From a bacterium (lineage in GTDB: Bacteria; Patescibacteriota; Saccharimonadia; Saccharimonadales; UBA4665), in the NCBI GenBank assembly GCA_021851735.1, contig JAJZCD010000001.1, forward strand, positions 35,078-99,077: a stretch of DNA of 64,000 nt. The letters are read 5' to 3'. Positions within the stretch are counted from its first letter, which is position 1. Each line of letters begins with the position of its first letter. Shown in pieces: positions 3,863-59,574 of this stretch. The notes beneath the pieces are model-generated. The model worked only from the letters and a program-made list of their open reading frames with translations, did no database searches and was not told where the DNA came from. The position numbers were made by a program, and so were the translations under genes.

Positions 3863-6031
3863 TTGAGAAAGATAAGACTGCTCTTCACGGTTCTTGTGTC
3901 ACTTGGTAGCGCCTGCGCACCACTAGGTGCCAAGTATGTACACGCTGCCAGTACTAACCTTATAGCAAACCCCTCCGTTGAGACACTCGACAGCTCGGGA
4001 AACCCGGTGAACTGGACCCCCAATACCTGGGGTACGAGCGCGACTACGTTAGCGGTAACGCATGATGCACACAGTGGCAATAATGCGCTGAGTGTTGTGT
4101 CGACATCACGGAGTAGCGGTGATGCCAAGTGGATGCCTGATCCAGTTACAGTGACTAGTGGGCAGACCTATACGTATACCGATTACTCTAAGGCATCGGT
4201 CCCTACACAATTGGATGCAGCATATACTGATTCATCTGGCACTGTGAGCTACTATTACCTTTCGACAGTACAGCCAAGCACTAATTGGCAGAAGAATGCG
4301 GTTGATCTAACAGTGCCAGCTGGTGAAGTGAAAGTGGCGGTATTACATATCCTGCCAACGACAGGCACACTGATTACTGACGATTTTAGTTTGTCGGCCC
4401 AAGCGCCCCCACCGACTAGCGGAAACTTGATAGCTAACCCATCCATGGAAATTGCGAATGGGTCAGCTCCAGCCGACTGGCAGACTGATCAGTGGGGTAC
4501 CAATACTGCTAAGTTTTCATATGTCACTAACGATGGGTACACCGGTTCGGCGAGCGTAAAGGTACAAATTACGAGCTATAGCAGCGGGGATGCTAAATGG
4601 TATTTTAAGCCTGTTGCCGTGCAACCAGACACTACGTACACGTATAGTGATTATTACAAATCGACGATAGACAGCAGAGTAGTTGTGCGTTTTGATGATG
4701 GCAGTGGTAATTATACATATATTGAGCCGGCTGACCCGGCTCCTGCTAACAACTGGGCGCAGGCATCTGCGACCTTTACGACCCCAAGCAACGCAAAATA
4801 TGTAACGGTCTTGCACCTTATATCTGCCTTGGGTACGCTGCAGACCGATGATGCGTCTCTAGTGGCTGCGCAAGGAGGTCCTACGGCTGGCAATCTATTC
4901 AGTAACCCCTCACTGGAGACGCCGGACCCGACGAATGCTAACTTGCCACTCGGCTGGCAGCACGGTGATTGGGGTACCAATACTGCCGCTTTCGCATATT
5001 CAAACGATGCACATACTGGGAACCGCAGCGTGACCATACAAATGAGTAACCGATCGAGCGGCGCAGCGTATTGGCATACTACTAACCCTCTACCGGTTAT
5101 GGGTGGACAGCTGTATGATTTCACTGACTATTATAAGTCGAATGTGCCGACTGAAATCGATGCTGATGTTACCATGAAGAATGGCAGCACGCAGTCTCTC
5201 TATGTCGGTTCGCCATTTGCCAGTCCGAATAGTTGGACAAAGTTTGAAACTCAATTTACCGTGCCAGCGAATGCAGTTTCAATAATGATATATCATGACA
5301 TATTCTCAGTTGGATACTTGACGACAGATGATTATAATTTAAGCAGCTTCTCATACCAGGGATTCAAACGACCGCTTGTGAGCATTACTGACGACGATGG
5401 GTTCTCTAATTTCTACACGAATGGGTTGCCGGTATTACAAAAATATGGCTTACCGGCGACTGCCTATATTATTTCGAGCTACGTTGGTTCGCCAAATTTC
5501 ATGTCGGCCGCGCAAGTGCAGGGTCTCCACCAAGCGGGAGTAGAGATAGGGTCTCACTCAGTTGATCATGCAGATCTCTCCACATTGAGTGCTAGCCAAC
5601 AAGACGCTGAGCTTAAGAATTCGCAGGCAACGTTACAAGGCATACTCAATGGGACTCCCGTGACTGATTACGCTGCTCCATATGGGGCGTATAACCAGCA
5701 AATTGTTACTGATGCTCAGAAGTATTATCAGACATATCGTGGGGTTATGAGTGGTTATAACGCGAAGAACAACTTTGACCCCATGAACTTACAGGTACAG
5801 AATATTACGAGCAGTACAACGACAAGCGATATACAAAGTTGGTTACAAAAGGCCGCGGCAACCAATACGTGGCTAATCCTGGTATACCACGAAGTTTCAA
5901 ACAATCCGTCCGATAGTACATACAATACGCCGCCAAGCGCTTTCGATGCGCAGATGGCAGCCATTAAACAGAGCGGCATTACAGTTGATACAGTTTCTCA
6001 AGCAACTCAAGAGATTGCGCCCCAGCTATAA
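3863..6031 (+). CDS. secreted polysaccharide deacetylase (CE4/NodB domain) with three N-terminal carbohydrate-binding-like modules
   Basis: 722-aa ORF with TTG start after a GGAACGAGG RBS-like purine run and a signal peptide (LLFTVLVSLGSACAPLGAKYVHA). Three ~150-aa repeats each open with NL(I/F)(A/S)NPSxE and contain GDAKW/GAAYW. C-terminal NodB signature VSITDDDG...EIGSHSVDH. Confidence 0.8.
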   Translation: MRKIRLLFTVLVSLGSACAPLGAKYVHAASTNLIANPSVETLDSSGNPVNWTPNTWGTSATTLAVTHDAHSGNNALSVVSTSRSSGDAKWMPDPVTVTSGQTYTYTDYSKASVPTQLDAAYTDSSGTVSYYYLSTVQPSTNWQKNAVDLTVPAGEVKVAVLHILPTTGTLITDDFSLSAQAPPPTSGNLIANPSMEIANGSAPADWQTDQWGTNTAKFSYVTNDGYTGSASVKVQITSYSSGDAKWYFKPVAVQPDTTYTYSDYYKSTIDSRVVVRFDDGSGNYTYIEPADPAPANNWAQASATFTTPSNAKYVTVLHLISALGTLQTDDASLVAAQGGPTAGNLFSNPSLETPDPTNANLPLGWQHGDWGTNTAAFAYSNDAHTGNRSVTIQMSNRSSGAAYWHTTNPLPVMGGQLYDFTDYYKSNVPTEIDADVTMKNGSTQSLYVGSPFASPNSWTKFETQFTVPANAVSIMIYHDIFSVGYLTTDDYNLSSFSYQGFKRPLVSITDDDGFSNFYTNGLPVLQKYGLPATAYIISSYVGSPNFMSAAQVQGLHQAGVEIGSHSVDHADLSTLSASQQDAELKNSQATLQGILNGTPVTDYAAPYGAYNQQIVTDAQKYYQTYRGVMSGYNAKNNFDPMNLQVQNITSSTTTSDIQSWLQKAAATNTWLILVYHEVSNNPSDSTYNTPPSAFDAQMAAIKQSGITVDTVSQATQEIAPQL
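3950..5332 (+). repeat. three tandem ~150-codon intragenic modules (CBM-like) inside the deacetylase gene
   Basis: Protein-level triplication. Modules start at TNLIANPSVE, GNLIANPSME and GNLFSNPSLE. Each contains W..D.WGT..., SSGDAKW-type and TDD motifs. Confidence 0.6.
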
Positions 6032-6035
6032 AATC

Positions 6036-6830
6036 TTAAGCTGACGATACAGTGTACGCTGCAGTAGTAAGCGCTTCAAATGGCTTTGTGGGATTTTGTA
6101 ACCACCATATGCTGGCTGCTACGGACGTGGTGGCTCGCCATACAGATGTTTCTGATGTATCAGGCGTAGTGCTCACCTGCCCGTTTACAGCGACGACGTA
6201 ATGTCTCTGGTGATGTGTAATGATATTGAGTGAAAAGCGCTTGGTAAATTCGTGTAGTGTTTCGACTAGCTGTACGAGTTCCATCTCACTCGTAAACGCG
6301 TGCGGGAAATGTGCCGTATTGCCTAACCGGCGTAATTGCCCCATGGCTAGTACTAGAAGCGTGTTTGGCCTATGTAGTATAGCGAGTGGCTGCTGACAAA
6401 ATGGATCAGCTGCATCCTTAGTGAGTGTAATGTGACCTCGATATTCATCTAGAAATCTTTCGAGTAGCACCGTCGTTTCGCTGTTACGACCAATGTCCCC
6501 TGGTAGTAACGTGCCGTCTGCCCTAGAGGCTAGCCCAAGCATGAGTGCGAGTGTGTCACGCGCAAAACTTCCACTGGGAGTGCTTGGTGCGAATATTGCT
6601 TCAGGAAAGATGTCGCTCACAACGCGCTGCATACTGCTCGGAAGCAAGACGGTGGCAACGCCGATACCAGCCTCGAGCGCGTCGCCATATGCATTAGCAG
6701 GCGCTTTAAACTCGTAGCCATTACCCCCGATTATTAGTAACGTACCGGCCTGCAGCTTGTTCTCAGGACGGCTCCATTCCAGCTCCGGGAATAGCAATGT
6801 CGTTTGTCGTAGCCAATACGTTCGCTCCAT
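6036..6830 (-). CDS. YjeF C-terminal (NAD(P)HX dehydratase / carbohydrate kinase)-like protein
   Basis: 264 aa. LLIIGGNGYEFKAPANAYGDALEAGIGVATVLLP resembles the YjeF_C N-terminal glycine-rich segment. I did not recognise the C-terminal GxGD motif, so activity is uncertain. Confidence 0.45.
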   Translation of the reverse strand: MERTYWLRQTTLLFPELEWSRPENKLQAGTLLIIGGNGYEFKAPANAYGDALEAGIGVATVLLPSSMQRVVSDIFPEAIFAPSTPSGSFARDTLALMLGLASRADGTLLPGDIGRNSETTVLLERFLDEYRGHITLTKDAADPFCQQPLAILHRPNTLLVLAMGQLRRLGNTAHFPHAFTSEMELVQLVETLHEFTKRFSLNIITHHQRHYVVAVNGQVSTTPDTSETSVWRATTSVAASIWWLQNPTKPFEALTTAAYTVSSA

Positions 6831-6914: not shown

Positions 6915-7643
6915 TCATATGGCTATATTTTGAGCAACTTCTAAGCTGCCAGCTGCAAGCTGGCTGGCACTCGGATTGCCGTGAGATTTTCCCTGGCAGA
7001 TTTGTATGATTGTCTGAGCTGCTACTTCCGGTGAGCCATCTATGTTATGTACCCAGAAATGATCGTGCTTTTGAGATAATGACCACGTAAGGCTTTCAAT
7101 TGCTTCGTCACGCCGAGCCTGGCGCTCAGGGTCATTGTGTGGAAACCGCATCGTAAAGCGTTCAAGCCATACGTCGGGGTCGCTAACAAGGGTTATAGTA
7201 AATGCGTTTCTGAAGCCTAGACGATGAAAGTTATCGATTAAGCTTGAGAATACGTCAGCTATATTAAACTCTGTTCGGTAGTCGTCTAGGGTTGTGTAGT
7301 ACAAGAGGTGGGAATACGGGTTGATCGCATATTGTACTACCTTATGCCGTTCAATAGCTTTGCACACGCGGTGTAAATCCCTGTCGGTACGGGGGATGTA
7401 GACGTAACGTCCGGGTTCGTCGTCATCACGCGGATCTCGGCTAGTACGGTTACCAGTGACATGGAACCGTTGGCCCAGATTGACAATCGCATCCATAACG
7501 GTATTCTTACCTTCGCCGGTTGCGCCAACAAGCATAACAATGGTTTTGGATGCTAGCCTGTCGGCAATTGCCAGCTTTGGCTCATAGTTGTCTTGTGTTT
7601 GGTGTAGTTGATTGAGTTTTTGGAGTGTTTTGCCTGAGAACAT
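6915..7643 (-). CDS. P-loop kinase, guanylate-kinase-like
   Basis: 242 aa. Walker A VGATGEGKNT, followed by TGNRTSRDPRDDDEPGRYVYI, which resembles the guanylate kinase TTRxPRxGE..G.dY.F segment. Confidence 0.45.
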   Translation of the reverse strand: MFSGKTLQKLNQLHQTQDNYEPKLAIADRLASKTIVMLVGATGEGKNTVMDAIVNLGQRFHVTGNRTSRDPRDDDEPGRYVYIPRTDRDLHRVCKAIERHKVVQYAINPYSHLLYYTTLDDYRTEFNIADVFSSLIDNFHRLGFRNAFTITLVSDPDVWLERFTMRFPHNDPERQARRDEAIESLTWSLSQKHDHFWVHNIDGSPEVAAQTIIQICQGKSHGNPSASQLAAGSLEVAQNIAI

Positions 7644-7649
7644 TAATTG

Positions 7650-8225
7650 TTAATCCTTGTATAGTGATTGTACCAGATCTACGTATGCTTGGGGATTGTA
7701 GTGAAAATCGTCGTGGTCGCCAGGTAGATGAACTATCTGTAGCTTAGGGTTGTCATGCTGTAGCATGTCAAGATTGGGCGTGAGCCAGTCGTCGTGTTCG
7801 TTGCGTACAAGTATCACTGTCTGATCGTTGATAGCTTTAGCCAAATCAAACGTACGTGCTGCGCGTATAATGCGCAGCGTGCGTTTCGTCTCTGCAACGG
7901 CGTAATATATGCCCCAGAGATTGCGAATGAGCCAGACGTGGAACGGATATCCGTCCCGGTAAAACAGTAAGTTGCTACGTGAGCGGGCACGGACACGTCC
8001 CCAGATGGTTTTACCGGGCCAATATGGCGGGTCTACCATAACTACCTTTTGGCCTGGGTGTAGTTTCGGTATGTACATGCAACCGGCGGAATGTGCCAGC
8101 ATAATATCAGCAGTATCAGCGTTCTGCACGACTGTGAACCCAGCACGGTGCAGGGCTCTTGTGAGCCGGGCGGTTGCGAAGTTTCCGCTCAGCACTCCGT
8201 GAAAAATTGTAACGTTCTTGCGCAT
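7650..8225 (-). CDS. putative alpha/beta hydrolase-fold protein
   Basis: 191 aa. Nucleophile-elbow-like LAHSAGC and late HLPGDHDD. Weak motif-only call. Confidence 0.3.
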   Translation of the reverse strand: MRKNVTIFHGVLSGNFATARLTRALHRAGFTVVQNADTADIMLAHSAGCMYIPKLHPGQKVVMVDPPYWPGKTIWGRVRARSRSNLLFYRDGYPFHVWLIRNLWGIYYAVAETKRTLRIIRAARTFDLAKAINDQTVILVRNEHDDWLTPNLDMLQHDNPKLQIVHLPGDHDDFHYNPQAYVDLVQSLYKD

Positions 8226-8231
8226 GATGTT

Positions 8232-9146
8232 TTATGTGAGCTGGCGTATGATCGTGCGTATAAGACTTTGACTCTCATGTTCAGCCTGATGGCCACTGAT
8301 TGTCCAAAGTAGCTCGCATTCTGGTAGACGTTGACTCAGTGTATAGGCAGTGATAGGCGGACAGACCATGTCATACCGGCCTTGTACGAGCCAAACTGGG
8401 TTTGTAAGTTGGTGTGCATTATTCAGTATGTAGTTATCAGGCATAAAACAGCGCTTCTGCATGTAGTGCATCTCAATACGGATTGGCGCAGGATCGTATT
8501 CGTCTATAGCTTCCGATGTGTGACGGTCGTCCAAACTTAGCACGTCACCCTCGAGCGTAGCATATGCGTAGCTGGACTCACGGGCGGCATCGGCACTGTC
8601 GCCCATGACGCGCTGGTAGTGGTACGTACCCGGGTCGGTACGGTGTGATTGGGGTGTAGCGGCTAGGTACCTGTCCCATGCGTCGGGGTAGAATGTACGG
8701 AACGCGCCCTTGTCGATCCAATCAATCTCGGCCTGTGACCCCGTAAAGAGACCACTCAGCACAAGTGCCTTAACGTGTTCGGGATGCTCAAGTGTGTATG
8801 CTAAGGCTAGGCAAGAACCCCATGAGGACCCGGTTACGATATATTGCTTGAGATTCAGGTGGTTGGTAATTTTTTGTATGTCCTCAATGAGCTTTTGAGT
8901 CGTGTTGTGCCTAAGCGATCCGTACGGGAGACTTTTACCGCAGCCGCGTTGGTCGAAAAATACCACTCGCTGTGTACGGGGATCGTATGGCAGCTTATGG
9001 CGATCACGTGACCGCCCGCCCGGGCCACCGTGCAGTGAGATTATGGGCGTTTTGACGGCTTTATTACCCCAGTCATGAATGTAGAGCGTGTGTCCGTCGC
9101 CAACGTCGAGGAATGTTTCGCGAATTGTGTAGGCATCAGGTGTCAT
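8232..9146 (-). CDS. pip: prolyl aminopeptidase (proline iminopeptidase)
   Basis: 304 aa. HGGPGG oxyanion motif, FDQRGCGKS, nucleophile elbow GSSWGS, C-terminal His region (ISGHQAEH). 4-nt overlap with the upstream xth. Confidence 0.85.
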   Translation of the reverse strand: MTPDAYTIRETFLDVGDGHTLYIHDWGNKAVKTPIISLHGGPGGRSRDRHKLPYDPRTQRVVFFDQRGCGKSLPYGSLRHNTTQKLIEDIQKITNHLNLKQYIVTGSSWGSCLALAYTLEHPEHVKALVLSGLFTGSQAEIDWIDKGAFRTFYPDAWDRYLAATPQSHRTDPGTYHYQRVMGDSADAARESSYAYATLEGDVLSLDDRHTSEAIDEYDPAPIRIEMHYMQKRCFMPDNYILNNAHQLTNPVWLVQGRYDMVCPPITAYTLSQRLPECELLWTISGHQAEHESQSLIRTIIRQLT

Positions 9147-16198: not shown

Positions 16199-17608
16199 TT
16201 AAAACAAGGATACGAGTGCAGCAATGCCGGCAGCAGTCATCACTGACGTTGTTATCCAACCGACTATGGTCGTAAGCGGCCGGTTACGCCAATGTCCCAT
16301 CACTCTTTTATTGCTACTGATCCGAACGATAAAAAAGAGCATGATCGGCGCTACTAACCCGTTTGCAACAGCTGAATAGATTAACGCTTTAATAGGGCTC
16401 AAGCCAATGAAATCAAGACTGATGCCAACTAGCATAGACAGCATCATAATGCCGTAAAATGAGTATGCTTGCCCCAAGTTGCGGTACAGACCCTCTTTCC
16501 AACCCATACTTTCAGCGATGGCGTACGAGCTGCTACCGGCTAGGACAGGTATGGCTAACATGCCCGTACCGATAATACCAATAGCGAACAAAAAGTATGT
16601 AGCATTGCCCGCAAATGGCCGGAGTGCTTCGGCGGCTTGCGCGGCTGTTGTTATGTGCGTAATGCCGTGCGCAAATAGTATACCGCCACAGGCTGCGATT
16701 ATAAAAAACATTACTATATTGCTCAAAAACATGCCACTCCAGATATCTATACGCATGCTGCGGATGTCTGCCGGGCTGGTCGCGCTACGGCGTTCCCGTA
16801 AAGTGGTTTTCCCTTGTAATATTCGCTCTTCAACTTCTTGGCTGGTTTGCCAGAAAAACAAATATGGAGAAATGGTTGTTCCCAGCACGGCGCATATTAG
16901 TAACACGGTAGTCTTGTCAAAGACAATATGTGGAAATATGGTGTAGCGTAGTGCTTCGCCCCAGTTTAAATGTGCCAGTATACTTGAGACGACGTAGCTT
17001 AACAGAACTAAAGCAAGCCATTTTAGGTACTTGGCATACCGTGCGTACGGTGCAAAGATTTGTAGCAATAAGCTGACAATGGCAAACCCAATAACCAGCA
17101 TTGAAAAATTTAGGTGTGGGTTAAGTAATTGCAGGCCCTTTGCCATTGCCCCTAGATCGGCACCGATGTTGAACGTATTAGCTGCAAACAGTAGTAATGT
17201 CGTAATACGAAGTATCCGTTTCGAGTAGTGTATACGTATATTACCGGCCAAGCCTCTCCCTGTGACCATACCAATACGCGCACACATTTCTTGTACTGTG
17301 CTCATCAGTGGGAAGGTCCAAAGTGCCATCCAAAGCATACCAAGGCCAAATTGAGCTCCAGTTTGGCTGTATGTGGCAATTCCCGATGGATCGTCATCGC
17401 TTGCCCCGGTCGTAAGCCCTGGTCCTAGTGCGTACCAGTAATTTTTGGCACGTTGTACTGGCATAGTACGCATAAGTTTGCTGCCAGCTTGGACTGTACG
17501 GTCGAGCACTACCGCTGGAGCTTCGGCACCTTTGGTGAACAGTTCATCAGTCGAATGTTTTTGGCGCAGGAACCCTGAGGCAGATTTTTCGGGTGTTTGT
17601 TGTGTCAT
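16199..17608 (-). CDS. mntH: NRAMP-family divalent metal (Mn2+/Fe2+) transporter
   Basis: 469 aa, polytopic. Nramp signature GPGLTTGASDDDPSGIATYSQTGAQFG. Confidence 0.85.
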   Translation of the reverse strand: MTQQTPEKSASGFLRQKHSTDELFTKGAEAPAVVLDRTVQAGSKLMRTMPVQRAKNYWYALGPGLTTGASDDDPSGIATYSQTGAQFGLGMLWMALWTFPLMSTVQEMCARIGMVTGRGLAGNIRIHYSKRILRITTLLLFAANTFNIGADLGAMAKGLQLLNPHLNFSMLVIGFAIVSLLLQIFAPYARYAKYLKWLALVLLSYVVSSILAHLNWGEALRYTIFPHIVFDKTTVLLICAVLGTTISPYLFFWQTSQEVEERILQGKTTLRERRSATSPADIRSMRIDIWSGMFLSNIVMFFIIAACGGILFAHGITHITTAAQAAEALRPFAGNATYFLFAIGIIGTGMLAIPVLAGSSSYAIAESMGWKEGLYRNLGQAYSFYGIMMLSMLVGISLDFIGLSPIKALIYSAVANGLVAPIMLFFIVRISSNKRVMGHWRNRPLTTIVGWITTSVMTAAGIAALVSLF

Positions 17609-21361: not shown

Positions 21362-23164
21362 TTAGGAGTGTTGTAGTGAGGGAGATCCGGAAGTATTGAT
21401 GTAGCCTTCGCGCTCCAGGTGTAAGAGTAGTTGTTGTGATAGCTCGTCGGCTGAGTGCCTGACAGTATCGAGTACGATGTCAGCGTCATTCGGGGATTCA
21501 TATGGGTCGGATATGCCAGTGAACGCTTTAATCTTCCCTGCTCTGGCTTTTGCATATAGACCCTTGCGGTCACGCTGTTCGCATACTTCGAGTGGTGTGT
21601 TGACATGTGCCAGGATAAATCCCCCGCCTTCATTTTCAACGAGTTGGCGTACCGCTGTACGAGTTGCACTATACGGTGCAATCGGCGCACATATTGCAAC
21701 GCCGCCATGCTTAGCGATTTCGCTAGCAACAAAACCGATGCGCTGAATATTGATGTCACGATGTTCCTTGCTAAAACCGAGCTCGCTCGATAGATGTTTG
21801 CGTACAATATCTCCGTCGAGCAGTGTAACGCTGCGGCCACCCAGCTCAAGGAGCTTGATAATCAGTACATTTGCAATGGTTGACTTGCCCGAACCGCTCA
21901 GACCGGTAAAGAATACGACGAACCCCTGCTTAAAGCGTGGAGGCGTGGTACGGTATAATTCAGCGGCAACTTCTGGGTAAGTGAACCATTCGGGAAGCGG
22001 CTTGCCGGTGCGGAGTCGCTGTCGCTGCTCGGTGCCGGAGATATTGGCAATCTCCAGACCCTCGGGAACTTCGTCAATTGGCATGTAGCTATCTCTGGAT
22101 GGGACGTAAACCATCATTTTGAATGGTACAACGGTGACACCGATTTCGGCAGCGTGCTTTTCGACAAGTTTCTGTGCGTCGTAGGGTCCGTAGAAATCAT
22201 CACCGCTGCTGTTCTTCCCGGGACCAGCATGGTCACGACCAACTATAAAGTGACTAGCACCATAGTTTTTACGGATTATAGCGTGCCAGACAGCCTCACG
22301 CGGCCCGCCCATACGCATAGCCAGCGGTAGCAGTGAGATCATAGAAGTATTACTTGGAAATTTCCCCGCTAATGCTTTGTATACACGTACGCGGGTAAAG
22401 TGGTCAATGTCGCCTGGTTTAGTCATGCCGACAACGGGCTGAATGAGTAAGTTAGCTTCGTTGTCACGTGCAGCTCGTAGTGTCATTTCCACATGTGCTC
22501 GATGCATGGGATTACGTGTCTGAAAGGCCACTACCTTTTCCCAGCCGCGCTTGGCGAATATATCCCGGAGTTCTGAGGGTGTATGGCGCATTTCAGCAAA
22601 GTCGTAGTGTGTAGGTAGCTGTAAACCTTCGAGTTTACCGCTGATGTAGTATGGCTGGGTCTGGTTGAGCAGGTACTGCACGCCGGGGTGCAATTCATCG
22701 GTAGTACCGAACGCAGCTTGCGCTTCCTCCTTGAAGTCTGGCTGGTAGATCTCATCCACAGTAAGTGCAGCTAGCAGCACTCCCTCTCTGTCACGCAGGG
22801 CTATAGGTTGCCCTTTTTTGATGCTTTTGGCGAACGTTTCATTTACGTCGAGGTTTATTGGCATTGGCCATAATGTACCATTACTAAGTCGCATGTCTTT
22901 CAGCACACTCTTATAGTCTGTTTCGCCCAAGAAGGTTGTCAGAGGCGAAAAACCACCGTTCATGAGTAGCTCCACGTCGCATAGTTGGCGCTGCGTGAGA
23001 TCGAGGCTTGGCCAGTCGCTGGACTGCTTTTTGAGTGCAGCCTTTCGTTTTTCATCGACGATGAGATTGATAAGTTTCCCGCCGTGAGGCGGGTTGATGT
23101 TATCTATCACTGGTAACCTCCATTCAAAAACACAGTATACCCCGTGGTACGGCCAGTATGTCAA
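21362..23164 (-). CDS. sat: bifunctional sulfate adenylyltransferase / adenylylsulfate kinase (PAPS synthase-like)
   Basis: 600 aa. ATP-sulfurylase motifs QTRNPMHRAH and HFIVGRDHAG. C-terminal APS kinase P-loop GLSGSGKSTIA. The true start is possibly downstream of the first ATG. Confidence 0.9.
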   Translation of the reverse strand: MTYWPYHGVYCVFEWRLPVIDNINPPHGGKLINLIVDEKRKAALKKQSSDWPSLDLTQRQLCDVELLMNGGFSPLTTFLGETDYKSVLKDMRLSNGTLWPMPINLDVNETFAKSIKKGQPIALRDREGVLLAALTVDEIYQPDFKEEAQAAFGTTDELHPGVQYLLNQTQPYYISGKLEGLQLPTHYDFAEMRHTPSELRDIFAKRGWEKVVAFQTRNPMHRAHVEMTLRAARDNEANLLIQPVVGMTKPGDIDHFTRVRVYKALAGKFPSNTSMISLLPLAMRMGGPREAVWHAIIRKNYGASHFIVGRDHAGPGKNSSGDDFYGPYDAQKLVEKHAAEIGVTVVPFKMMVYVPSRDSYMPIDEVPEGLEIANISGTEQRQRLRTGKPLPEWFTYPEVAAELYRTTPPRFKQGFVVFFTGLSGSGKSTIANVLIIKLLELGGRSVTLLDGDIVRKHLSSELGFSKEHRDINIQRIGFVASEIAKHGGVAICAPIAPYSATRTAVRQLVENEGGGFILAHVNTPLEVCEQRDRKGLYAKARAGKIKAFTGISDPYESPNDADIVLDTVRHSADELSQQLLLHLEREGYINTSGSPSLQHS

Positions 23165-45344: not shown

Positions 45345-46220
45345 TTACAAGCTGTGGATCTGTTCGATGATTTTGGCGAACTGCTCATATGATGCTGGAT
45401 CGGCGTCCTTATTCGCGGCGTAGATAGCATGTTGGATTCCCAGGCTCTTTAGCTCATCAATTTTTTGCATAGTTCCGTTTATGTCGCGAGCTGCGGACGT
45501 GACATCTATACCGACTAAAGCAGTTTTCTCTATATCATCGTATGAGCGCCCCTGCTCTTCACAGTGCTTCTTGAGTACATCAATCTTGTGGGCTAATAGT
45601 GCACTATCGCGAGCAAATAGATTGCACGCATCGCCATATTTTGCCACAAACCTCAAGGTTTTCTCTTCTCCGCCACCGCCTATAAGAATGGGCGGGTGCG
45701 GTTTGCTAATTGGCTGAGGTGAAAGATATGGTTCTGGCAGTGAGTATATCTTGCCCTTAAACGGCGTGCTATCGCTTTGCCACATTTGTAGTGCTAGTTG
45801 CAGGGTGTCTTCTAGCCGGTCAAAGCGCTTTGAATTAAGTGGATCAAGTAAGCCAAGGGCTTTCGCTTCTTGGTCATTCCAACCGGCGCCGATACCGAAG
45901 TATGCTCGGCCTCCAGATAGGACGTCGAGTGTCGTGACGGCGTTTACAAGTACGGCCGGTTCCCGATAGATAACACCCGTTACCATTGTACCAAGCTTAA
46001 CGGTCTTGGTTACGCCTGCTAGGTAGCCAAGCGTGGTGTATGCTTCGAGCATTGGATCAGTGTATGGACCGATGTTTGGTAGTTGGAAGAAATGGTCCAT
46101 TACCCAAATGCTGTCAAAGCCAGCAGCTTCAGCCGATACGGCGATACGTTGCAGATGTTCACCGATGCTGCTTTCTCCTCCGGTATAGTCAAAACGATTT
46201 ATTTGTAGCCCTACTTTCAT
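45345..46220 (-). CDS. LLM-class (luciferase-like) flavin/F420-dependent oxidoreductase
   Basis: 291 aa. N-terminal MKVGLQINRF...AAGFDSIWVMDHFFQ is typical of the F420-dependent LLM subgroup. Confidence 0.75.
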   Translation of the reverse strand: MKVGLQINRFDYTGGESSIGEHLQRIAVSAEAAGFDSIWVMDHFFQLPNIGPYTDPMLEAYTTLGYLAGVTKTVKLGTMVTGVIYREPAVLVNAVTTLDVLSGGRAYFGIGAGWNDQEAKALGLLDPLNSKRFDRLEDTLQLALQMWQSDSTPFKGKIYSLPEPYLSPQPISKPHPPILIGGGGEEKTLRFVAKYGDACNLFARDSALLAHKIDVLKKHCEEQGRSYDDIEKTALVGIDVTSAARDINGTMQKIDELKSLGIQHAIYAANKDADPASYEQFAKIIEQIHSL

Positions 46221-46234
46221 ATGCGAATCTCCTT

Positions 46235-47206
46235 TTATAGTTTATGTAGTACTGGCACTACTTCTTTTCCTAGCATCTCGATAGTCGCTAGTTGATCAAT
46301 TGAGGTAGTCTGGATACCGACAATGTCGGCGCCCAGCTCGGCAATGAGCGGCGCGTACGTGGTTATGTAATCGGCAGCGTTTTGCACCCGACTGAATAGA
46401 TTGAGTATTTCGCCACGGGGGAGCTTATCTGCTTCTGTTTGCAGCTGTATCGGGTCAATAGCCTCGGCGCGGCTGGGTGCGCGCAGACCTCGCTGTGACT
46501 GCAGCGCCTGCCATGCTTCAGTATCATTCTGGGCGAGGATGGACCAGCGATTGGCAACAACTGTATAGTTGTTGTTCGCGACCGCCTTAGCGGGTAATAT
46601 AACATTCTGCTTTGCGTGCTCAATATTCTTGGCACTTACGATAATGCCGTCATAGTGCTTTCCTGCCGTAGTCGCACTTTGTGGGCCACCAGCTGCAAGC
46701 AAAATGGATACCGTGTGTTTGGGTGGGCTGTACAATTTTGCAGCACTAGTTTGGTAATAGTTACCATGAAAATTGAGTTTTTCGCCAGCTAGGAGACGTT
46801 GTATGATCTCATGCGCTTCGGCTAATCGAGCGGCCCTTTCTTTGTATGGGGGTAGTACAAAGCCTAGCGGTCCCTCGTTGATGTTCTCACCTGTCCCAAT
46901 ACCAAGTGTAAAACGTCCGTTGCTCAGACGATCAATAGTCGCCGCTGCTTGAGCAATGACTGCCGGGTGAAACCGGAAGAGTGGTGCTGTGACAGCGGTC
47001 ATAAGATTAATATGGGTCGTTTTGACAGCGATCGCGCCAAGTGTCGAGAATGCGAATCCACTTGCGCTATGGTCGTCAACCCACGGGTGGAAGTGCTCGG
47101 AGATCATTACTCCGTCGAAGCCGACAGCTTCTGCTGTAACGGCCTGATTTACGATTTCTTCTGGTTGGAATTGCTCGTCAGAGCAAAATAAATATATCTC
47201 CGCCAT
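46235..47206 (-). CDS. LLM-class oxidoreductase (F420-dependent G6PD-family-like)
   Basis: 323 aa. CSDEQFQPEEIV...AVGFDGVMISEHFHPW and GRFTLGIGTGE. Confidence 0.7.
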   Translation of the reverse strand: MAEIYLFCSDEQFQPEEIVNQAVTAEAVGFDGVMISEHFHPWVDDHSASGFAFSTLGAIAVKTTHINLMTAVTAPLFRFHPAVIAQAAATIDRLSNGRFTLGIGTGENINEGPLGFVLPPYKERAARLAEAHEIIQRLLAGEKLNFHGNYYQTSAAKLYSPPKHTVSILLAAGGPQSATTAGKHYDGIIVSAKNIEHAKQNVILPAKAVANNNYTVVANRWSILAQNDTEAWQALQSQRGLRAPSRAEAIDPIQLQTEADKLPRGEILNLFSRVQNAADYITTYAPLIAELGADIVGIQTTSIDQLATIEMLGKEVVPVLHKL

Positions 47207-48233: not shown

Positions 48234-48866
48234 TTAGTTATCGCCACCACCACCTCCGTCGCCACCACCACCACCACTCGGTGCGGGTATGTAGACGGGA
48301 GTGATAATCTTCTGGATGATAATTTGCGTCCTTGTTTGTACTTGAACTTTAGGAACAACTGGTTTGGCAACGACTTGAAAGTCAGCATAAGGGAGCGCGG
48401 TGTAGTTCGTGGCTAACCCAACGATACGATATATACCTGGCTTATTAAAGAGTTGCGGCCATTTAGCGAAGCTTTGCGTATAGGAGCCACCCGCCGGTAT
48501 GGTCCGCTGCTTAGGCTCACCCGCACAGGCCGATGCGGCCGCCGTACTATGGATGCGCACCCATGAATTATTGGTCCACGAGTATACGTACAATGGTTCT
48601 TGTGGGCAGGTATTGACAAATGAGATTGGCGTGTCCAAATTGTTTTTGAGCGTGTAGCTAATCTTCTCTCCAACAGTATACTTTGTTTTTGAAGTGGTCA
48701 GCTGCAAAGTACCGCTTGCAAAACTGAGTGTGTTCACGCGCTTAGCCTGCCAATAGACAGAGAAGATAAAAGCTGAGATTAACAGCACGTACAACAGAAT
48801 CCATCCTGATAGGCGTTTGCGCTTGTTTCGCTCGCGAATGGTGGTGACGGTAGTCGTTGGACTCAT
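48234..48866 (-). CDS. membrane-anchored extracytoplasmic beta-domain protein with poly-Gly/Asp tail
   Basis: 210 aa. N-terminal basic stretch plus TM (WILLYVLLISAFIFSVYW), Ig-like beta region, C-terminal PSGGGGGDGGGGGDN. Starts 5 nt downstream of the ferric-reductase-like gene. Confidence 0.35.
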   Translation of the reverse strand: MSPTTTVTTIRERNKRKRLSGWILLYVLLISAFIFSVYWQAKRVNTLSFASGTLQLTTSKTKYTVGEKISYTLKNNLDTPISFVNTCPQEPLYVYSWTNNSWVRIHSTAAASACAGEPKQRTIPAGGSYTQSFAKWPQLFNKPGIYRIVGLATNYTALPYADFQVVAKPVVPKVQVQTRTQIIIQKIITPVYIPAPSGGGGGDGGGGGDN

Positions 48867-48871
48867 TACGC

Positions 48872-49618
48872 TTACACTCTCCTACGCAATCGATAGACAA
48901 TGGCGACAGCAATGCTTATGCCGAACGCAATCCATATGACCCGGAAGATACCGTGCGTCAGATCGGTACCGAGAAAAAGTGCATGGAAGAAGACGAAGAT
49001 TATTGTTAAGTAAGCGAGAAAATGAAACGCTTTCCAGGTGTGAGGTTTCTTGTCTATCCAGAGGATTGATGTCAATATGATGGCGAGTACACAGTAAAGT
49101 GACAAAATGCCGAGTGCTACGTATAGGGAACCGAGATGGTGGCCGGCTATGGATACTTCGCGGTAGTTTGACCGGAATGGGATAAGAATCTGGATGATCG
49201 TGAAGGGTACGTATTTATCGAATAGTAGCGCCACGACGTGAATTACAGATGAGATCGCGAAGACGTAAGCAACTGCTTTGTGTGTTGCCCATGCAGTTAA
49301 CGGCTCAAGAAATTTGAACGTTTTGCCGGTAATAAAGCCAATCCCTGAAAGCATCAGCAGCACTAGTGAAAATGCTGCCACAAATCCGGCTGCTCTGGTA
49401 ATGTACCAAGGCCATGATGCCTTTGCGCGCGTTTCAAGCTGTTTTGAAACTGAAGGTCCTTGTACAGGTTGGATAATAATGTTTGGTGAAGCACTGGTAG
49501 TAAACTGCGACGTAGCTGATGAGACATTTGCTGCTGCAAAAACCGGAGAAGTTTGCAGTAAGCTTGCTGCAAATGCTAATAGGATAATGAGCTGAGCGAT
49601 TGCGGGTACTTTACGCAT
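48872..49618 (-). CDS. ferric-reductase-type (FRD/MsrQ-like) di-heme transmembrane protein
   Basis: 248 aa. Signal peptide, then ~5 TM helices. Two intramembrane His pairs with i/i+14 and i/i+13 spacing (HKAVAYVFAISSVIH and HFLAYLTIIFVFFH), as in the bis-heme FRD superfamily. Confidence 0.5.
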   Translation of the reverse strand: MRKVPAIAQLIILLAFAASLLQTSPVFAAANVSSATSQFTTSASPNIIIQPVQGPSVSKQLETRAKASWPWYITRAAGFVAAFSLVLLMLSGIGFITGKTFKFLEPLTAWATHKAVAYVFAISSVIHVVALLFDKYVPFTIIQILIPFRSNYREVSIAGHHLGSLYVALGILSLYCVLAIILTSILWIDKKPHTWKAFHFLAYLTIIFVFFHALFLGTDLTHGIFRVIWIAFGISIAVAIVYRLRRRV

Positions 49619-50597
49619 AGTTATTTTCTATCATTATACCATTACCGAAACGAAGTAAACGGGGTACTTTTTTATCAGAGCGACATTGCATCACGGCGGC
49701 ACGTACGCCCTGCCGTTTGAGAAATGGCACACAGTGATCGCTGCCCAATATAACCGCGCAGCTTGCCAACACATCAGCGCGGAGCACTGAATCGTCACAT
49801 ATGGTGGCGAGCAATATGTCCGTTTCAGCGGGCTGGCGCGTGCGCGGGTCTATAAGGTGGTGCCACTGCCTTCCCTGTTTTGTGCCATGATGCACCGTAA
49901 TGCCTGATGTAGCTACGCCACAATGACGTGAGATTGTAAACGTACCAATGTTTTTTGTTTGGTCGACCGCACTTTGTATACCAACTGACCACGATTCTTT
50001 ATGTTCGTCATTGCCGCCAATCGCTATATCTCCACCGAATGAAAGCCAGTAACCGGTTATAATGTCTGGCAGGTCGCGACGTAGTTGGTCGGCTAAGTAG
50101 CCTTTACCGCAGCCGCCTAGGTCAAGTGCAGTACCGTAGGGTATACGTGCCCAATTGTCTTCGATTTCTAATCGGTCGATCGACGTGACCGATTTGCGCG
50201 AATGATCATCCACAGTGTCTTGTTCGCGTCCAGGCACTCGAGAATGAACGTATCCGGACGCTTGCAGTGCCGGCAGGACAAACGGATTATATAAACCATC
50301 GGTTTTGAGAGCCATAGCTTGGGCCGCAAGCAGTATGTCATGGAATGCTGGAGATATGACTTGTTTACTACCGGCATTCCGGTTGAACATAGATAGCTCG
50401 CTGCCGGGTAAAAATCGACTGAACTGACGCTCAAATAAAAATATCGCTCGCCAGAGCTTCTTGTACAGTGCATCTATCTTGGATGTACTTGCGTCACTCA
50501 CCAGTACTATGCCAGTTTTACTTCCTAGTGCGATACACTCTTGGTAGTACTGCATGTCTGAATCTAAATACAGCGGCCCGATGGGGTCGTTTGACAA
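49611..50597 (-). CDS. apbE: FAD:protein FMN transferase (ApbE family), no signal peptide
   Basis: 328 aa. LDLGGCGKGYLAD, FGGDIAIGG, GVATSG and HHLIDPRT motifs. The N-terminus is hydrophilic. The start may be the internal ATG at 50555. Confidence 0.8.
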   Translation of the reverse strand: MSNDPIGPLYLDSDMQYYQECIALGSKTGIVLVSDASTSKIDALYKKLWRAIFLFERQFSRFLPGSELSMFNRNAGSKQVISPAFHDILLAAQAMALKTDGLYNPFVLPALQASGYVHSRVPGREQDTVDDHSRKSVTSIDRLEIEDNWARIPYGTALDLGGCGKGYLADQLRRDLPDIITGYWLSFGGDIAIGGNDEHKESWSVGIQSAVDQTKNIGTFTISRHCGVATSGITVHHGTKQGRQWHHLIDPRTRQPAETDILLATICDDSVLRADVLASCAVILGSDHCVPFLKRQGVRAAVMQCRSDKKVPRLLRFGNGIMIENNYA

Positions 50598-51676
50598 GCT
50601 GGTGCCGGAGCTTTTATTGGTGCGGCGTATATTGGTGCAATGGTCTGCGGCTGTGGGTTGGCGGTACTTGGAGAGGTACCTTGCGATTGGTTGTTTGTCG
50701 ATATCTTTGGGGTAGTTGGTGCGGTAATGACGTCTGGTGACGGAGGGATCGTATTGACAAGCTGATCAAGTTGTTTCTGGCGTGCGTTTGTAATAATGTA
50801 CGGCGTTGTCTTGGTTGGCTTTTGAGTAGTCGTTGGCGGTAGGTTCCGTAAAAGGTCGCTAACCATTACGACGAATGTTCCGAGCGCAATACCGACGGCG
50901 CCGAGTGTGTAGGCGTTAGCTGGCCAACTGCGCAAGATGCTGGTTTGCTTAGGTGATGATTGCGTGAATGCCTCAGATAGTACGTTGGTCTTTGGCGCAC
51001 CTTGCTTGGTGAGCGTGCCTGACATTGCCTTCATGAATACGGGAGGTCCGCAGATGAAGAACCTACGGTCATCGTAATGTTTATTGGTGACCTGGTCGAG
51101 TAGCTCAGGAGTGACGCGCCCAGTCACAGCTTGCTCTTTTGGAAGCTGATCAGCTGGACCGTGGCCGATTACGAATATAACCTTGAGGTTCGGGTGAGTT
51201 TGCTGGATGGCACGTAGCTCGTCGCCAAACGGTATGTCATCTTGTGTCGCGCAACTATACAACAGGGTTACGTCGTTATCGGCATTGAGCGCACTGAGAT
51301 ACCGCATCATACTTATAAACGGCGTTATTCCGATACCGCCGGCTATGAAGACAGCAGTCTTATCGCGAGATGTGTCAAAGACGAAACCACCGAAGGGCCC
51401 ATTGACATCAACTAAGTCGCCTTGCTGGAGTTTACTTAAAGACGTTGTAAAGTGCCCCCTGACCCGCATACTGAACTGTAATGTATGTTGGTCGGTTGGC
51501 GAACTAACGATTGAAAAGCAACGAGCATGAGAAAGCTTATTACGCTTTTGGTAGCTAATTGCAGCGTATTGCCCAGGTTGGAATGCCAGTGGGCGTTCAG
51601 ATTCATCGCGTTGTAGTGTTAGCCGTAAGGTTGACGGTGTTACCTTTGTGCTTTCTTGAACAATATAGGTAGGCAT
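50564..51676 (-). CDS. FNR-like FAD/NAD(P)H oxidoreductase with C-terminal TM anchor and Pro/Thr-rich tail
   Basis: 370 aa. FQPGQYAAI, RCFSIVSSP (RxYS-type FAD motif), FIAGGIGITP, FICGPP. Then a TM (YTLGAVGIALGTFVVMV) and a ~90-aa P/T/Q-rich tail ending CQTTPSGRC. Confidence 0.8.
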   Translation of the reverse strand: MPTYIVQESTKVTPSTLRLTLQRDESERPLAFQPGQYAAISYQKRNKLSHARCFSIVSSPTDQHTLQFSMRVRGHFTTSLSKLQQGDLVDVNGPFGGFVFDTSRDKTAVFIAGGIGITPFISMMRYLSALNADNDVTLLYSCATQDDIPFGDELRAIQQTHPNLKVIFVIGHGPADQLPKEQAVTGRVTPELLDQVTNKHYDDRRFFICGPPVFMKAMSGTLTKQGAPKTNVLSEAFTQSSPKQTSILRSWPANAYTLGAVGIALGTFVVMVSDLLRNLPPTTTQKPTKTTPYIITNARQKQLDQLVNTIPPSPDVITAPTTPKISTNNQSQGTSPSTANPQPQTIAPIYAAPIKAPAPACQTTPSGRCI

Positions 51677-51832
51677 GCTTGTGGCTATTATAGCATCAGA
51701 ATATGTCTGATTTGATTGTTTTTTTGCATGATAGGCACTATTTGTAATGGATGCCTATAACTCCTTTCTATCCGGGGTTATTGCTTAACAAATTTCTAGC
51801 GCGTACACTAGATTACAAGGGAGCTATGATAC

Positions 51833-58566: not shown

Positions 58567-59127
58567 ATGCATCATCATCGTTTTACGTATTCGGAAGCAG
58601 AACGACGAAAACGCCAGAATCCAGAAGCGCTGCTACACGGTATGGGGCTTCAGCCCGGCATGTGTTTTGTCGACTTGGGATGTAACGATGGATTTTTTAC
58701 GCTTCCGGCTGCGCGGATAGTCGGTCCGAACGGCAAGGTTATTGCACTTGATATTGATGAAGCGGCACTCGGACGCCTTACGGAAAAGCTGCAGTCTGAG
58801 CATATACAAAATGTTGAGGTGGTCGCGAGTACAGCGGAAGCTTTCGATACATACAGTGATTGTGCGGACATCGTCTTTTTCGGCATGGTGCTCCATGATT
58901 TTCAGGACCCGGTTCAAGTGCTTCGAAACGCGAAGCGAATGTTACACAAGGACGGCTTTATGTATGATTACGACTGGAAAAAACAACCAAGCGAATTGGG
59001 CCCACCGCTTGCTATACGCCTAAGTCCAACACAAGTTGCCGCATTAGCTCAAAAAGCGGAGCTCCATGTTACTGCAGCGGAAACTGTCGATGATAATTTC
59101 TACGCGGTGACGATGCGTTTAGGATAA
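58567..59127 (+). CDS. class I SAM-dependent methyltransferase
   Basis: 186 aa. Motif I FVDLGCNDGFFT, acidic post-I ALDID, and VFFGMVLHD. Confidence 0.8.
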   Translation: MHHHRFTYSEAERRKRQNPEALLHGMGLQPGMCFVDLGCNDGFFTLPAARIVGPNGKVIALDIDEAALGRLTEKLQSEHIQNVEVVASTAEAFDTYSDCADIVFFGMVLHDFQDPVQVLRNAKRMLHKDGFMYDYDWKKQPSELGPPLAIRLSPTQVAALAQKAELHVTAAETVDDNFYAVTMRLG

Positions 59128-59574
59128 ACGAAATTCCTGACGAGCATTCTTGGGAAAATGTTCAGCGTCAAATAGCACGAATAGCTCTGGCTTGATACGA
59201 TAGAACCTGTGTGGGCGATCAGGGTGTGCTATGAACTGTTCGATTTGTTCGCTTGAGAATATGCGGTCTTTATAGACGCTTATGGTTTTTTGGACATCAC
59301 CTTCATCTGTCAGTAGAGAAGCGACGCCTTCAAACTGTAATCCTCTAGATTTATCTTGTGGTGTTTGCGGTAGGCACATTGACCCGGCGACGTATGGGTC
59401 TTCCATTACTTCTGCTGAATGGCGTGTTGTTGTGGCTGAGAAGTAGTAAATGCTCATGCTGTCATCCGTTGCAAACCATACGTTGCACACCCATGGTTTG
59501 CCATTTGATACGGTAGCTAGGTGCATCATTTTTGCATCCTGGAGATATGTTTGGATGAGCTGTTTTACTTCCAT
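59119..59574 (-). CDS. pyridoxamine 5'-phosphate oxidase-family (FMN-binding split barrel) protein
   Basis: 151 aa. MHLATVSNGKPWVCNVWFATDD is typical of the general-stress-protein-26/PNPOx-like N-terminus. Confidence 0.6.
   Translation of the reverse strand: MEVKQLIQTYLQDAKMMHLATVSNGKPWVCNVWFATDDSMSIYYFSATTTRHSAEVMEDPYVAGSMCLPQTPQDKSRGLQFEGVASLLTDEGDVQKTISVYKDRIFSSEQIEQFIAHPDRPHRFYRIKPELFVLFDAEHFPKNARQEFRLS

Follow-up and report, generated by a model that had tools for sequence, protein, structure and literature searches.

How might an enzyme that attaches flavin to proteins, and that carries no export signal of its own, contribute to a redox chain predicted to end outside the cell? This question is raised by a group of four genes in a 64,000-nucleotide (nt) stretch of a Candidatus Saccharibacteria genome (GenBank assembly GCA_021851735.1, contig JAJZCD010000001.1, positions 35,078 to 99,077), which is referred to here as the window and supplies the numbering of its genes. 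A preliminary description, made from the letters of the window alone, had reported four co-directional, overlapping or near-abutting genes at positions 48234-51676, and the list of open reading frames (ORFs) places them there on the minus strand:

50564-51676, minus strand: gene 1, an FNR-like FAD/NAD(P)H oxidoreductase with a single transmembrane (TM) helix and a tail, 370 residues
49611-50555, minus strand: gene 2, an ApbE-family FAD:protein FMN transferase without a signal, 314 residues from the conserved ATG
48872-49618, minus strand: gene 3, a six-TM ferric reductase-type (FRD) protein with a NOX-type di-heme pattern, 248 residues
48234-48866, minus strand: gene 4, an N-terminally anchored beta-sandwich protein resembling immunoglobulin (Ig) and fibronectin type III (FnIII) domains, 210 residues

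The explanation that best fits the locus, with a rough probability of 0.5 for the whole of it, is that the four genes form one operon that would encode a quinone-independent NOX-type transmembrane conduit with a flavinylated tail. The cytoplasmic FNR-like domain of gene 1 would oxidize NAD(P)H on FAD, and the protein's own C-terminal TM helix would hold it at the membrane, with electrons passing to the inner and then the outer heme b of the separate FRD protein. The last carrier outside would be FMN, phosphoester-linked to Ser366 in C-QTTPSG-R-C-I at the end of a tail of ~90 residues. Since the operon's ApbE bears no signal for export, it would attach this FMN on the cytoplasmic side, with FAD at hand, and the still unfolded tail would only then cross the membrane, its C-terminus last. 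Once outside, the tethered flavin would pass electrons to an acceptor there (Fe(III), O2 or some other oxidant, for example), and the anchored Ig-like protein and the outer loops of the FRD protein perhaps serve to dock the flavin. To our knowledge, bacteria of the Candidate Phyla Radiation (CPR), or Patescibacteria, lack respiratory chains and quinones. A self-contained conduit from NAD(P)H through heme to the outside would offer them an outlet for reducing equivalents, or a means of reducing iron or oxygen at their surface.

A conserved cassette with separate dehydrogenase and membrane proteins

The four genes are closely packed in the window. A gap of 8 nt lies between the stop codon of gene 1 and the conserved apbE ATG, apbE and the FRD gene overlap by 8 nt, and a 5-nt gap separates the FRD gene from gene 4. 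An alternative TTG start at 50597 would extend apbE to 328 residues (49611-50597); the orthologues and the source contig use the ATG at 50555. Exact copies of the locus are present on metagenome contigs in ENA, and nearly all named homologues of the FRD protein come from Candidatus Saccharibacteria/Saccharimonadales. A scan of one genome per species recovered 65 loci, mainly from Saccharimonadia, with a minority from Parcubacteria, Paceibacterota, Nomurabacteria and Berkelbacteria. The preliminary description had proposed conserved synteny as a check, and the order FNR, ApbE, FRD, Ig-like protein is kept in every locus from these 65 species-level genomes that is long enough to judge. This arrangement is far beyond chance, and the flanking genes are not conserved.

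Inspection covered the 64-kb window and 6 kb on either side of each orthologue. When all ORFs of the loci were clustered, only the four cassette families were common to the loci, and the cassette is thus a self-contained unit. The same clustering revealed no fifth conserved gene, whether an iron transporter, MsrP or FMN_bind, and the commonest neighbour family was found at 8 of ~65 loci. One Patescibacteria locus (L069, 4326-6848) has the FNR-tail, ApbE and FRD genes followed by a P-type cation ATPase in place of the Ig-like protein.

Gene 1 had been described as an FNR-like protein with the motifs RCFSIVSSP, GGIGITP and CGPP, an unusual C-terminal TM helix and a tail of ~90 residues, and Pfam and hydropathy analyses agree. 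FAD_binding_6 (E=4e-10, 40.3 bits) and NAD_binding_1 (E=8e-17, 62.3 bits) both score above the Pfam cut-offs, and NCBIfam models reveal similarity to the reductase domains of flavohemoprotein, MmoC and BenC. All three motifs are found in the product, and RCFS, GHFT, GGIGITPF and CGPP are kept across 59 complete orthologues. A single hydrophobic helix is followed by a tail of 93 residues. The protein can be divided as follows:

50942-51676, minus strand: cytoplasmic FNR-like domain, residues 1-245, with the RCFS flavin motif, GxxT, GGIGITPF, CGPP and the C-terminal tEaF aromatic
50846-50920, minus strand: TM helix, residues 253-277, hydropathy 2.03, with a conserved SWPxNxY motif just before it; kept in orthologues
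50741-50824, minus strand: juxtamembrane tail segment PTKxxPYLITNARQxQLDQLVNxIPP, conserved in all lineages
50567-50611, minus strand: conserved C-terminal peptide APAPACQTTPSGRCI, the candidate ApbE flavinylation tag

Evidence that gene 3 supplies the membrane part of the conduit comes from its profile match, its helices and its His residues. The hidden Markov model (HMM) searches that had been suggested for the locus matched all of the families named, namely FAD_binding_6, NAD_binding_1, PF02424 and PF01794, the last of these marginally (28.1 bits against a gathering cut-off of 28); many homologues of the FRD protein bear a precomputed PF01794 annotation. The protein has six hydrophobic helices, and an apparent N-terminal signal peptide is most simply read as the first TM helix (TM1) of a six-TM fold. 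The two His pairs, noted earlier at i/i+14 and i/i+13 spacing, are His113/His127 and His199/His212, with His113 and His199 on the inner side and His127 and His212 on the outer side. All four are invariant in 17 homologues and are kept in 62 of 63 rows of the locus alignment, the odd row being a one-residue mis-call.

A 2025 study of E. coli MsrQ drew a line between MsrQ and STEAP proteins, in which the inner cofactor site contains Arg and binds a flavin, and NOX and DUOX proteins, in which a His that ligates heme precedes Arg or Lys (PMC12525009). The window protein has W-A-[TS]-His113-Lys114 and its orthologues H-[KR], which fits the NOX/DUOX pattern as a matter of sequence pattern and not of structural superposition. 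Because His113-Lys114 stands at the inner site, gene 3 is assigned from its sequence to the NOX di-heme type, and it would be expected to bind heme b. An FMN site in the FRD protein, as in MsrQ and STEAP, was considered and is ruled out by the NOX-type His at that position. The proposal of a split NOX/ferric-reductase-type conduit, made in the preliminary description, is borne out at the level of gene identity and synteny: the FNR-like and di-heme-type FRD proteins are encoded apart yet co-inherited, and in one distant locus (L068) they are fused.

AlphaFold2 modelled six long helices with a predicted local distance difference test (pLDDT) score of 67, and a Foldseek search with this model returned SpNOX, NOX2, STEAP1 and DUOX1 as the best, though weak, PDB fold matches (E 0.08-1, TM-scores ~0.33). 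A search of PDB sequences with the FRD profile gave no match even at E<=10. With SpNOX and NOX2 among the best fold matches and a His pattern of NOX type, the locus might instead encode a plain two-component NADPH oxidase, in which O2 would be reduced to superoxide at the outer heme as in SpNOX, and the tail and Ig-like protein would serve assembly or anchoring. Such an oxidase fails to explain the obligatory ApbE gene and the conserved C-terminal peptide, and we consider it quite unlikely as an account of the whole locus. It concerns the acceptor only, and is compatible with the model of a conduit with a flavinylated tail, for which O2 may be an acceptor.

A signal-less ApbE and its candidate substrate

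The product of gene 2 matches PF02424 (E=3e-44), aligns full-length to the solved ApbEs 3PND, 5MGY and 4XGW, and conserves the FSRF, ATSG, HHxIDP (which includes the catalytic His) and AD motifs. It had been described as lacking any signal peptide or lipobox. The window protein indeed has neither, nor any hydrophobic segment, and the same holds in every orthologue examined. Among 57 complete ApbE orthologues, none has a hydrophobic N-terminus, even when read from stop to stop, and the only borderline cases are L024 and L061, both of them over-extended ORFs. For locus L111, the ApbE seemed at first to have a signal peptide, but this proved an artefact of an ORF extended into the upstream gene. 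An HMMER search of 1.84 billion cluster representatives identified 215 ApbE relatives at E<=1e-30, those with names belonging to Saccharibacteria and Patescibacteria. The best 150 of the 215 are ~300-330 residues each and align from their first residues, and a hydrophobic N-terminus is found in 0 of these 150. By these sequences, the ApbE clade in CPR is uniformly signal-less, and it is predicted to be cytoplasmic.

A signal-less ApbE need not act on a protein at all. CPR bacteria have very limited cofactor biosynthesis, and the enzyme could be an FAD-binding, FAD-pyrophosphatase or flavin-trafficking factor that supplies the FNR-like enzyme in a flavin scavenger. FAD hydrolysis is known for some ApbE/Ftp proteins, and one residue, at the position of E. 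coli Tyr60, decides the class: it is aromatic in FAD-binding transferases and Asn or Ala in hydrolases (PMC4767422). In the window protein, the Phe of FSRF is aligned to this position, as expected for the transferase class. A non-transferase ApbE would also leave unexplained the strict co-occurrence of the gene with a conserved, sometimes canonical, Ser tag (see below). We regard such a role as very improbable.

If the ApbE is a transferase, its substrate is not one of the conventional kind within the regions inspected. The canonical motif D-x-x-[ST]-G-A-[ST] is absent from all four proteins, as is [ST]G[AS][ST]. No ORF of the 64-kb window contains D..[ST]G[AS][ST], and two bare [ST]GA[ST] matches lie in unrelated proteins. 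Pfam searches gave no FMN_bind, DUF2271 or DUF3570 match in the four proteins, none of these families recurs beside the cassette in the 65 genomes, and no FMN_bind-type gene is found among the ORFs of the window. Gene 4 was also considered, as a substitute for FMN_bind or as a flavinylation target, and was rejected: it has no conserved Ser or Thr and only generic Ig/FnIII matches.

The absence of a conventional substrate gene could mean that the locus is an ordinary MsrQ-like flavinylation system whose ApbE modifies a conventional FMN-binding protein encoded elsewhere, the tail serving for wall spanning, glycosylation or docking. The published composition of MsrQ-like clusters is FRD, NAD-binding domain and ApbE (PMC8238504), and a substrate gene could lie beyond the 64 kb inspected in this genome and the 6 kb on either side of each orthologue. 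The lack of an FMN_bind-like gene or canonical motif in the window, and of any such gene recurring by the cassette in the 65 genomes, argues against an unseen substrate. Moreover, a uniformly signal-less ApbE clade could not reach a secreted FMN-bind domain, and related operons have a canonical TGAS at the position of the tail. We judge this explanation unlikely.

The data instead suggest that the C-terminal peptide of gene 1 is the best candidate for the ApbE target, with flavinylation there proposed from comparison with related operons. The C-terminus of the tail is predicted to lie outside the cell because the FNR domain must be inside and there is only one TM helix, and the charge bias around this helix agrees, though it is modest. 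The preliminary description had called the tail Pro/Thr-rich. A linker rich in Ser, Thr and Pro does follow the juxtamembrane segment and varies among lineages, but the tail is not mere low complexity, since it also has the juxtamembrane helix and a nearly invariant C-terminal peptide. Within the window's subgroup, conservation is 0.8-1.0 over the last ~12 residues, against 0.2-0.5 in the linker. The window protein ends in CQTTPSGRCI, with the candidate Ser366 (50579-50581) flanked by Cys361 and Cys369, and the Cys pair near the tag suggests an oxidizing compartment.

The form of the tag varies among orthologues. A pattern search for the Cys loop found tails ending in C-x-T-[TS]-x-S-G-x(1-4)-C in 39 of 59 orthologues; other tails end in [RK]-T-T-[VA]-S-x-P-P-P or R-[ST]-x-[VAT]-S-COOH, and in one case (L052) in PRSGAS. 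When tags were classified across all forms, a Ser-containing terminal tag was present in 57 of the 59 (33 relaxed, 23 Cys-loop and 1 canonical). The FNR tail might also be joined to ApbE by read-through or frameshifting, which would take ApbE outside; this possibility was rejected, since the two genes are mostly in different frames and no fused ORF occurs in ~60 loci.

Additional evidence for the tail as the ApbE partner came from relatives in which the cassette is rearranged. In L068, a distant Patescibacteria locus, FRD and FNR are fused into a NOX-like protein of 519 residues beside a signal-less ApbE. The tail is a separate single-TM protein of 166 residues with the end ...QPRTTVS, as in the FNR-fused tails of other CPR genomes. 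The tail therefore behaves as a module of its own, found together with ApbE and FRD. To extend the comparison, 80 metagenome loci retrieved by an ApbE profile were classified, and the FRD gene follows ApbE in 40 of the 61 that were evaluable. The tag could be assessed at 44 loci, where the ApbE is signal-less and another ORF ends no more than 60 nt upstream of it; in 35 of them the upstream protein has a Ser tag at its C-terminus, compared with 114 of 1262 background ORFs (Fisher p=6e-27). The 35 tags comprise 5 of the canonical form [ST]G[AS][ST], 27 relaxed and 3 Cys-loop. The canonical tag considered alone is present on 5/44 upstream proteins and 7/1262 background ORFs (p=2e-5). Eight loci that were first scored as having a hydrophobic ApbE N-terminus, including the L111 artefact, are mostly without a tagged upstream protein.

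The link between the window peptide and the canonical ApbE motif is provided by stand-alone tails. A search with the tail of locus L140 recovered 91 homologues, down to 38% identity, and 79 of them end in ...[RK]P[KR]TSA[ST]-T-G-A-S-G-[GKH]-COOH, which is the canonical motif at the extreme C-terminus. The tail of L144, which belongs to the same alignable family, ends in C-T-A-A-S-G-K-T-C. This ending ties the canonical ...A-S-G to the Cys-loop ...S-G of the window, and Ser366 is nominated on this basis. The FNR-like gene, searched for with an HMM built from CPR sequences, was detected at 0/45 high-GC loci (0.60-0.78 GC) versus 9/16 low-GC loci. A dehydrogenase fused to the tail seems to be characteristic of low-GC, CPR-like loci, which in our view would fit the lack of quinones in CPR.

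A different proposal places the ApbE site in the cytoplasm, either in the first cytoplasmic loop of the FRD protein ([TS]97-G98-x-[TS]100) or in the FNR-like domain; the flavin would then sit between FAD and the inner heme, and the tail would be unrelated to ApbE. The FRD loop shares a compartment with ApbE and is strongly conserved (T/S in 61/62, G in 62/62 and T/S in 57/62 sequences), with a canonical TGA[TS] in 11/63 orthologues. In E. coli MsrQ and STEAP, a flavin is found on the cytoplasmic side of the FRD fold (PMC12525009). The loop, TGxT, was nevertheless demoted as a candidate: Ala occupies the acceptor position, 100, in five orthologues, and the motif is missing in distant operons that have the same ApbE clade and a tail tag (YTQF in L068 and TSGAL in L069). 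In addition, the window FRD protein has His and not the flavin-binding Arg at the inner site, so that heme would occupy this site. If the N-terminus is TM1, residues 98-112 of the FRD protein presumably correspond to the NOX B-loop, and we take the conservation of the FRD loop to reflect dehydrogenase docking, as for that B-loop. A cytoplasmic flavin site is thus rather unlikely, and the tail peptide is preferred.

If the tail is the target, an ApbE predicted to be inside has to be reconciled with a tail predicted to be outside. The simplest reconciliation, which we infer, is that the tail is flavinylated in the cytoplasm and translocated afterwards, while still unfolded. This order of events agrees with three features: the tag invariably occupies the extreme C-terminus, the part that would cross last; a folded flavin domain is lacking; and the apbE gene comes directly downstream. 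ApbE has been verified experimentally to flavinylate motifs on unstructured C-terminal extensions of FMN_red proteins (PMC11334425), and seven-residue flavin tags perform best at protein termini (PMC12052999). Should modification in the cytoplasm precede export, an exported ApbE and an external supply of FAD would no longer be required, and the view that they are would need revising. Such a route would involve neither FAD export nor a folded flavin-binding domain, and the tail peptide would be a natural minimal flavin-tag for engineering.

While these data are consistent with a conduit that ends in a flavinylated tail, several points weigh against it. The window peptide, T-T-P-S-G in a Cys loop, is not the canonical [ST]-G-A-[ST], and Ser366 is put forward as the flavinylated Ser by positional analogy. 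The ApbE is predicted to be cytoplasmic and the tail outside, and the charge bias around the TM helix is only modest. The FRD model has a pLDDT of only 67, and its PDB fold matches have weak E-values. Gene context, with flanks that are not conserved, reveals no acceptor or physiological role. The probability of the whole explanation is set no higher than about one half because the modify-then-export step is something we infer, and the literature yielded no experimental precedent for flavinylation followed by translocation.

A wider reading can be offered only tentatively. In CPR/Patescibacteria and in the high-GC loci, there may be a widespread family of conduits with a natural C-terminal flavin tag, in which a cytoplasmic ApbE would modify a single-pass, Pro-rich tail that is then exported. 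In CPR, the tail protein would be fused to the NAD(P)H dehydrogenase, and FMN on a flexible leash outside would take electrons from the outer heme.

The partner protein and the genomic neighbourhood

The fourth gene of the cassette had been described as encoding a membrane-anchored beta-domain protein with a poly-Gly/Asp tail, and modelling agrees. The product has an N-terminal TM anchor, whose flanks have a strong N-in charge bias, an Ig/FnIII-like beta-sandwich (AlphaFold2, pLDDT 85) and a tail ending ...SGGGGGDGGGGGDN. Its fold matches are generic (Ig and GH3-FnIII), with a weak match to Big_14. Cys87 and Cys114 are invariant, and the C-terminus is acidic and rich in Gly and Asp. The partner protein of other loci, whether secreted or anchored, almost always has an acidic C-terminus of this kind, rich in Gly, Asp or Glu (…GGGGGDN, …HHDDGGGGDD, …EHEHDDD, …DEDEEDDD; 48237-48278 in the window). 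Acidic ends are also found in L068 (5484-6038), L082 (6123-6617), L085 (4012-4551), L111 (1754-2851), L140 (3347-4225), L150 (14-481) and L152 (5830-7008). They are independent of the body that carries them, which may be an Ig-like domain, as in Saccharimonadia, a coiled coil, or a module fused to FRD, as in L152. Neither the acidic partner proteins nor the stand-alone tail proteins match a Pfam family. The acidic ends may bind cations or the basic tail tag.

Two of the rearranged loci have further features. In L068, the fused FRD-FNR protein (6939-8570, in its N-terminal ~120 residues) and the acidic protein (5484-6038) contain thrombospondin-type-3-like DxDxDG calcium-binding repeats within their extracytoplasmic portions. 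In L152 (265-9300, GC 0.71, on an 828-kb contig), the FRD protein is extended by a fused seventh TM helix, coiled coil and acidic end. The same locus encodes a tail protein ending in TSASTGASGG, followed by a signal-less ApbE whose gene a frameshift divides in this assembly. The neighbours of the locus include genes for a ZIP metal permease, a multicopper oxidase and DsbA/VKOR, a setting linked with metals and extracytoplasmic redox.

A possible start of the operon transcript was read from the sequence upstream of gene 1:

51687-51695, minus strand: extended -10-like element TGCTATAAT, ending 10 nt upstream of the gene 1 ATG

A consensus promoter scan did not list TGCTATAAT, which has no matching -35 hexamer, and no Shine-Dalgarno sequence lies between the element and the gene 1 ATG. 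The position of TGCTATAAT suggests that the operon transcript may be leaderless or have a very short leader.

Other genes of the window bear on flavin, metal or sulfur metabolism. Two adjacent genes for luciferase-like (LLM, PF00296) oxidoreductases lie directly downstream of the operon (45345-47206, minus strand), and a PNPOx-like FMN-binding protein is encoded nearby, at about 59119-59574 (L001 annotation). The neighbourhood is unusually rich in flavin proteins for CPR; the LLM and PNPOx genes are not kept beside the cassette elsewhere. An Nramp-family divalent-metal (Mn2+/Fe2+) transporter (PF01566, E=3e-79) is encoded at 16199-17608 on the minus strand, 31 kb from the operon. It could take up Fe2+ made by a surface ferric reductase, and in other genomes it is unlinked to the cassette. 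A fused ATP-sulfurylase/APS-kinase of 600 residues (PUA_2, ATP-sulfurylase and APS_kinase; 21362-23164, minus strand) represents sulfate activation in this Saccharibacteria genome.

Comparison with known systems

The closest published parallel is with the "MsrQ-like" flavinylation clusters, which combine PF01794, apbE and an FMN-binding protein, often with PF00175, and which are found mostly in Actinobacteria (Meheust et al. 2021, eLife, PMC8238504). As in these clusters (PMC8238504; Huang et al. 2024, mSystems, PMC11334425), the window groups a PF01794 di-heme protein, a PF00175 module and apbE. The proposed flow is also the same, from cytosolic NAD(P)H through hemes to an ApbE-attached flavin outside. 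Meheust et al. 2021 looked for a PF01794 gene within five genes of apbE, and in the window the two genes are adjacent. They also required a signal peptide or lipidation site on one or more of ApbE, FMN_bind, DUF2271 and DUF3570; here the ApbE is signal-less, and FMN_bind, DUF2271 and DUF3570 were not found. The window further differs from the MsrQ-like clusters in that FRD and FNR are separate proteins, the ApbE has neither signal peptide nor lipobox, and the host belongs to CPR. In place of FMN_bind, DUF2271 or DUF3570, the window has as candidate substrate a short peptide at the C-terminus of a single-pass tail. The 2021 analysis found extracytosolic flavinylation to be strikingly under-represented in CPR, and considered only clusters with a predicted signal peptide on the ApbE or the substrate gene (PMC8238504). 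Under this selection rule, clusters without an ApbE signal peptide or a substrate gene would have escaped analysis.

A second parallel is with MsrQ and Fre of E. coli, for which the term two-component NOX-like system has been used (Juillan-Binard et al. 2017, as cited in PMC8238504). In both cases, an FRD-family membrane protein is fed by a separate cytoplasmic NAD(P)H oxidoreductase of the FNR fold. Fre is soluble and unlinked, whereas the window reductase is membrane-anchored and operon-encoded. E. coli MsrQ holds one heme and a non-covalent FMN, with Arg77 at the inner site (PMC12525009), whereas the NOX-type His of the window protein implies two hemes. In addition, MsrPQ does not involve ApbE, and the window system has no MsrP partner; no MsrP-type gene was found in the cassette or among the Pfam-annotated neighbouring genes. 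The di-heme pattern is shared instead with SpNOX (PDB 8qq7, 8qt6) and NOX2/DUOX, which likewise have an FNR-like dehydrogenase and a six-TM domain in which two helices each bear a His pair, spaced i+14 and i+13. In those proteins the TM and dehydrogenase parts are fused, whereas in the window they are split and accompanied by three extra conserved partners (ApbE, the tail and the Ig-like protein).

Intracellular ApbEs have also been described, both in Klebsiella pneumoniae and as ApbE domains of trypanosomatid fumarate reductase (reviewed in PMC12052999). Like the window ApbE, they are signal-less. Their target is the folded FMN_bind domain of a soluble fumarate reductase; in contrast, the window has no FMN_bind, and its candidate site is predicted to be outside. 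The candidate tag itself most resembles the ApbE-flavinylated C-terminal extensions of FMN_red proteins and engineered flavin-tags (PMC11334425; PMC12052999), which are likewise short motifs on an unstructured terminal peptide. The FMN_red tag folds back on a neighbouring flavin pocket, whereas the window tag ends a linker of ~60-100 residues after a TM helix, with no recognisable flavin-binding domain.

The preliminary description did not recognise the arrangement as a described system. This claim has to be narrowed: MsrQ-like clusters, MsrQ/Fre and cytosolic ApbEs are all published, and a split NOX combined with flavinylation is, as a concept, already in the literature. The particular configuration of the window, and the wider operon family, were not found described in the searchable flavinylation literature, a weak negative given that no search required ApbE together with a CPR term; a search on ferric reductases in CPR returned one unrelated paper, and of 714 matches to a second search, the 15 listed included none that named ApbE. 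In the dataset of PMC8238504, 4% of genomes have an apbE without a known substrate, and a C-terminal peptide tag on single-pass tails would account for some of these orphan genes. What is new is a uniformly signal-less ApbE clade in CPR that occurs with no known substrate domain and with a conserved C-terminal tag, a tag that has canonical counterparts in the wider operon family.

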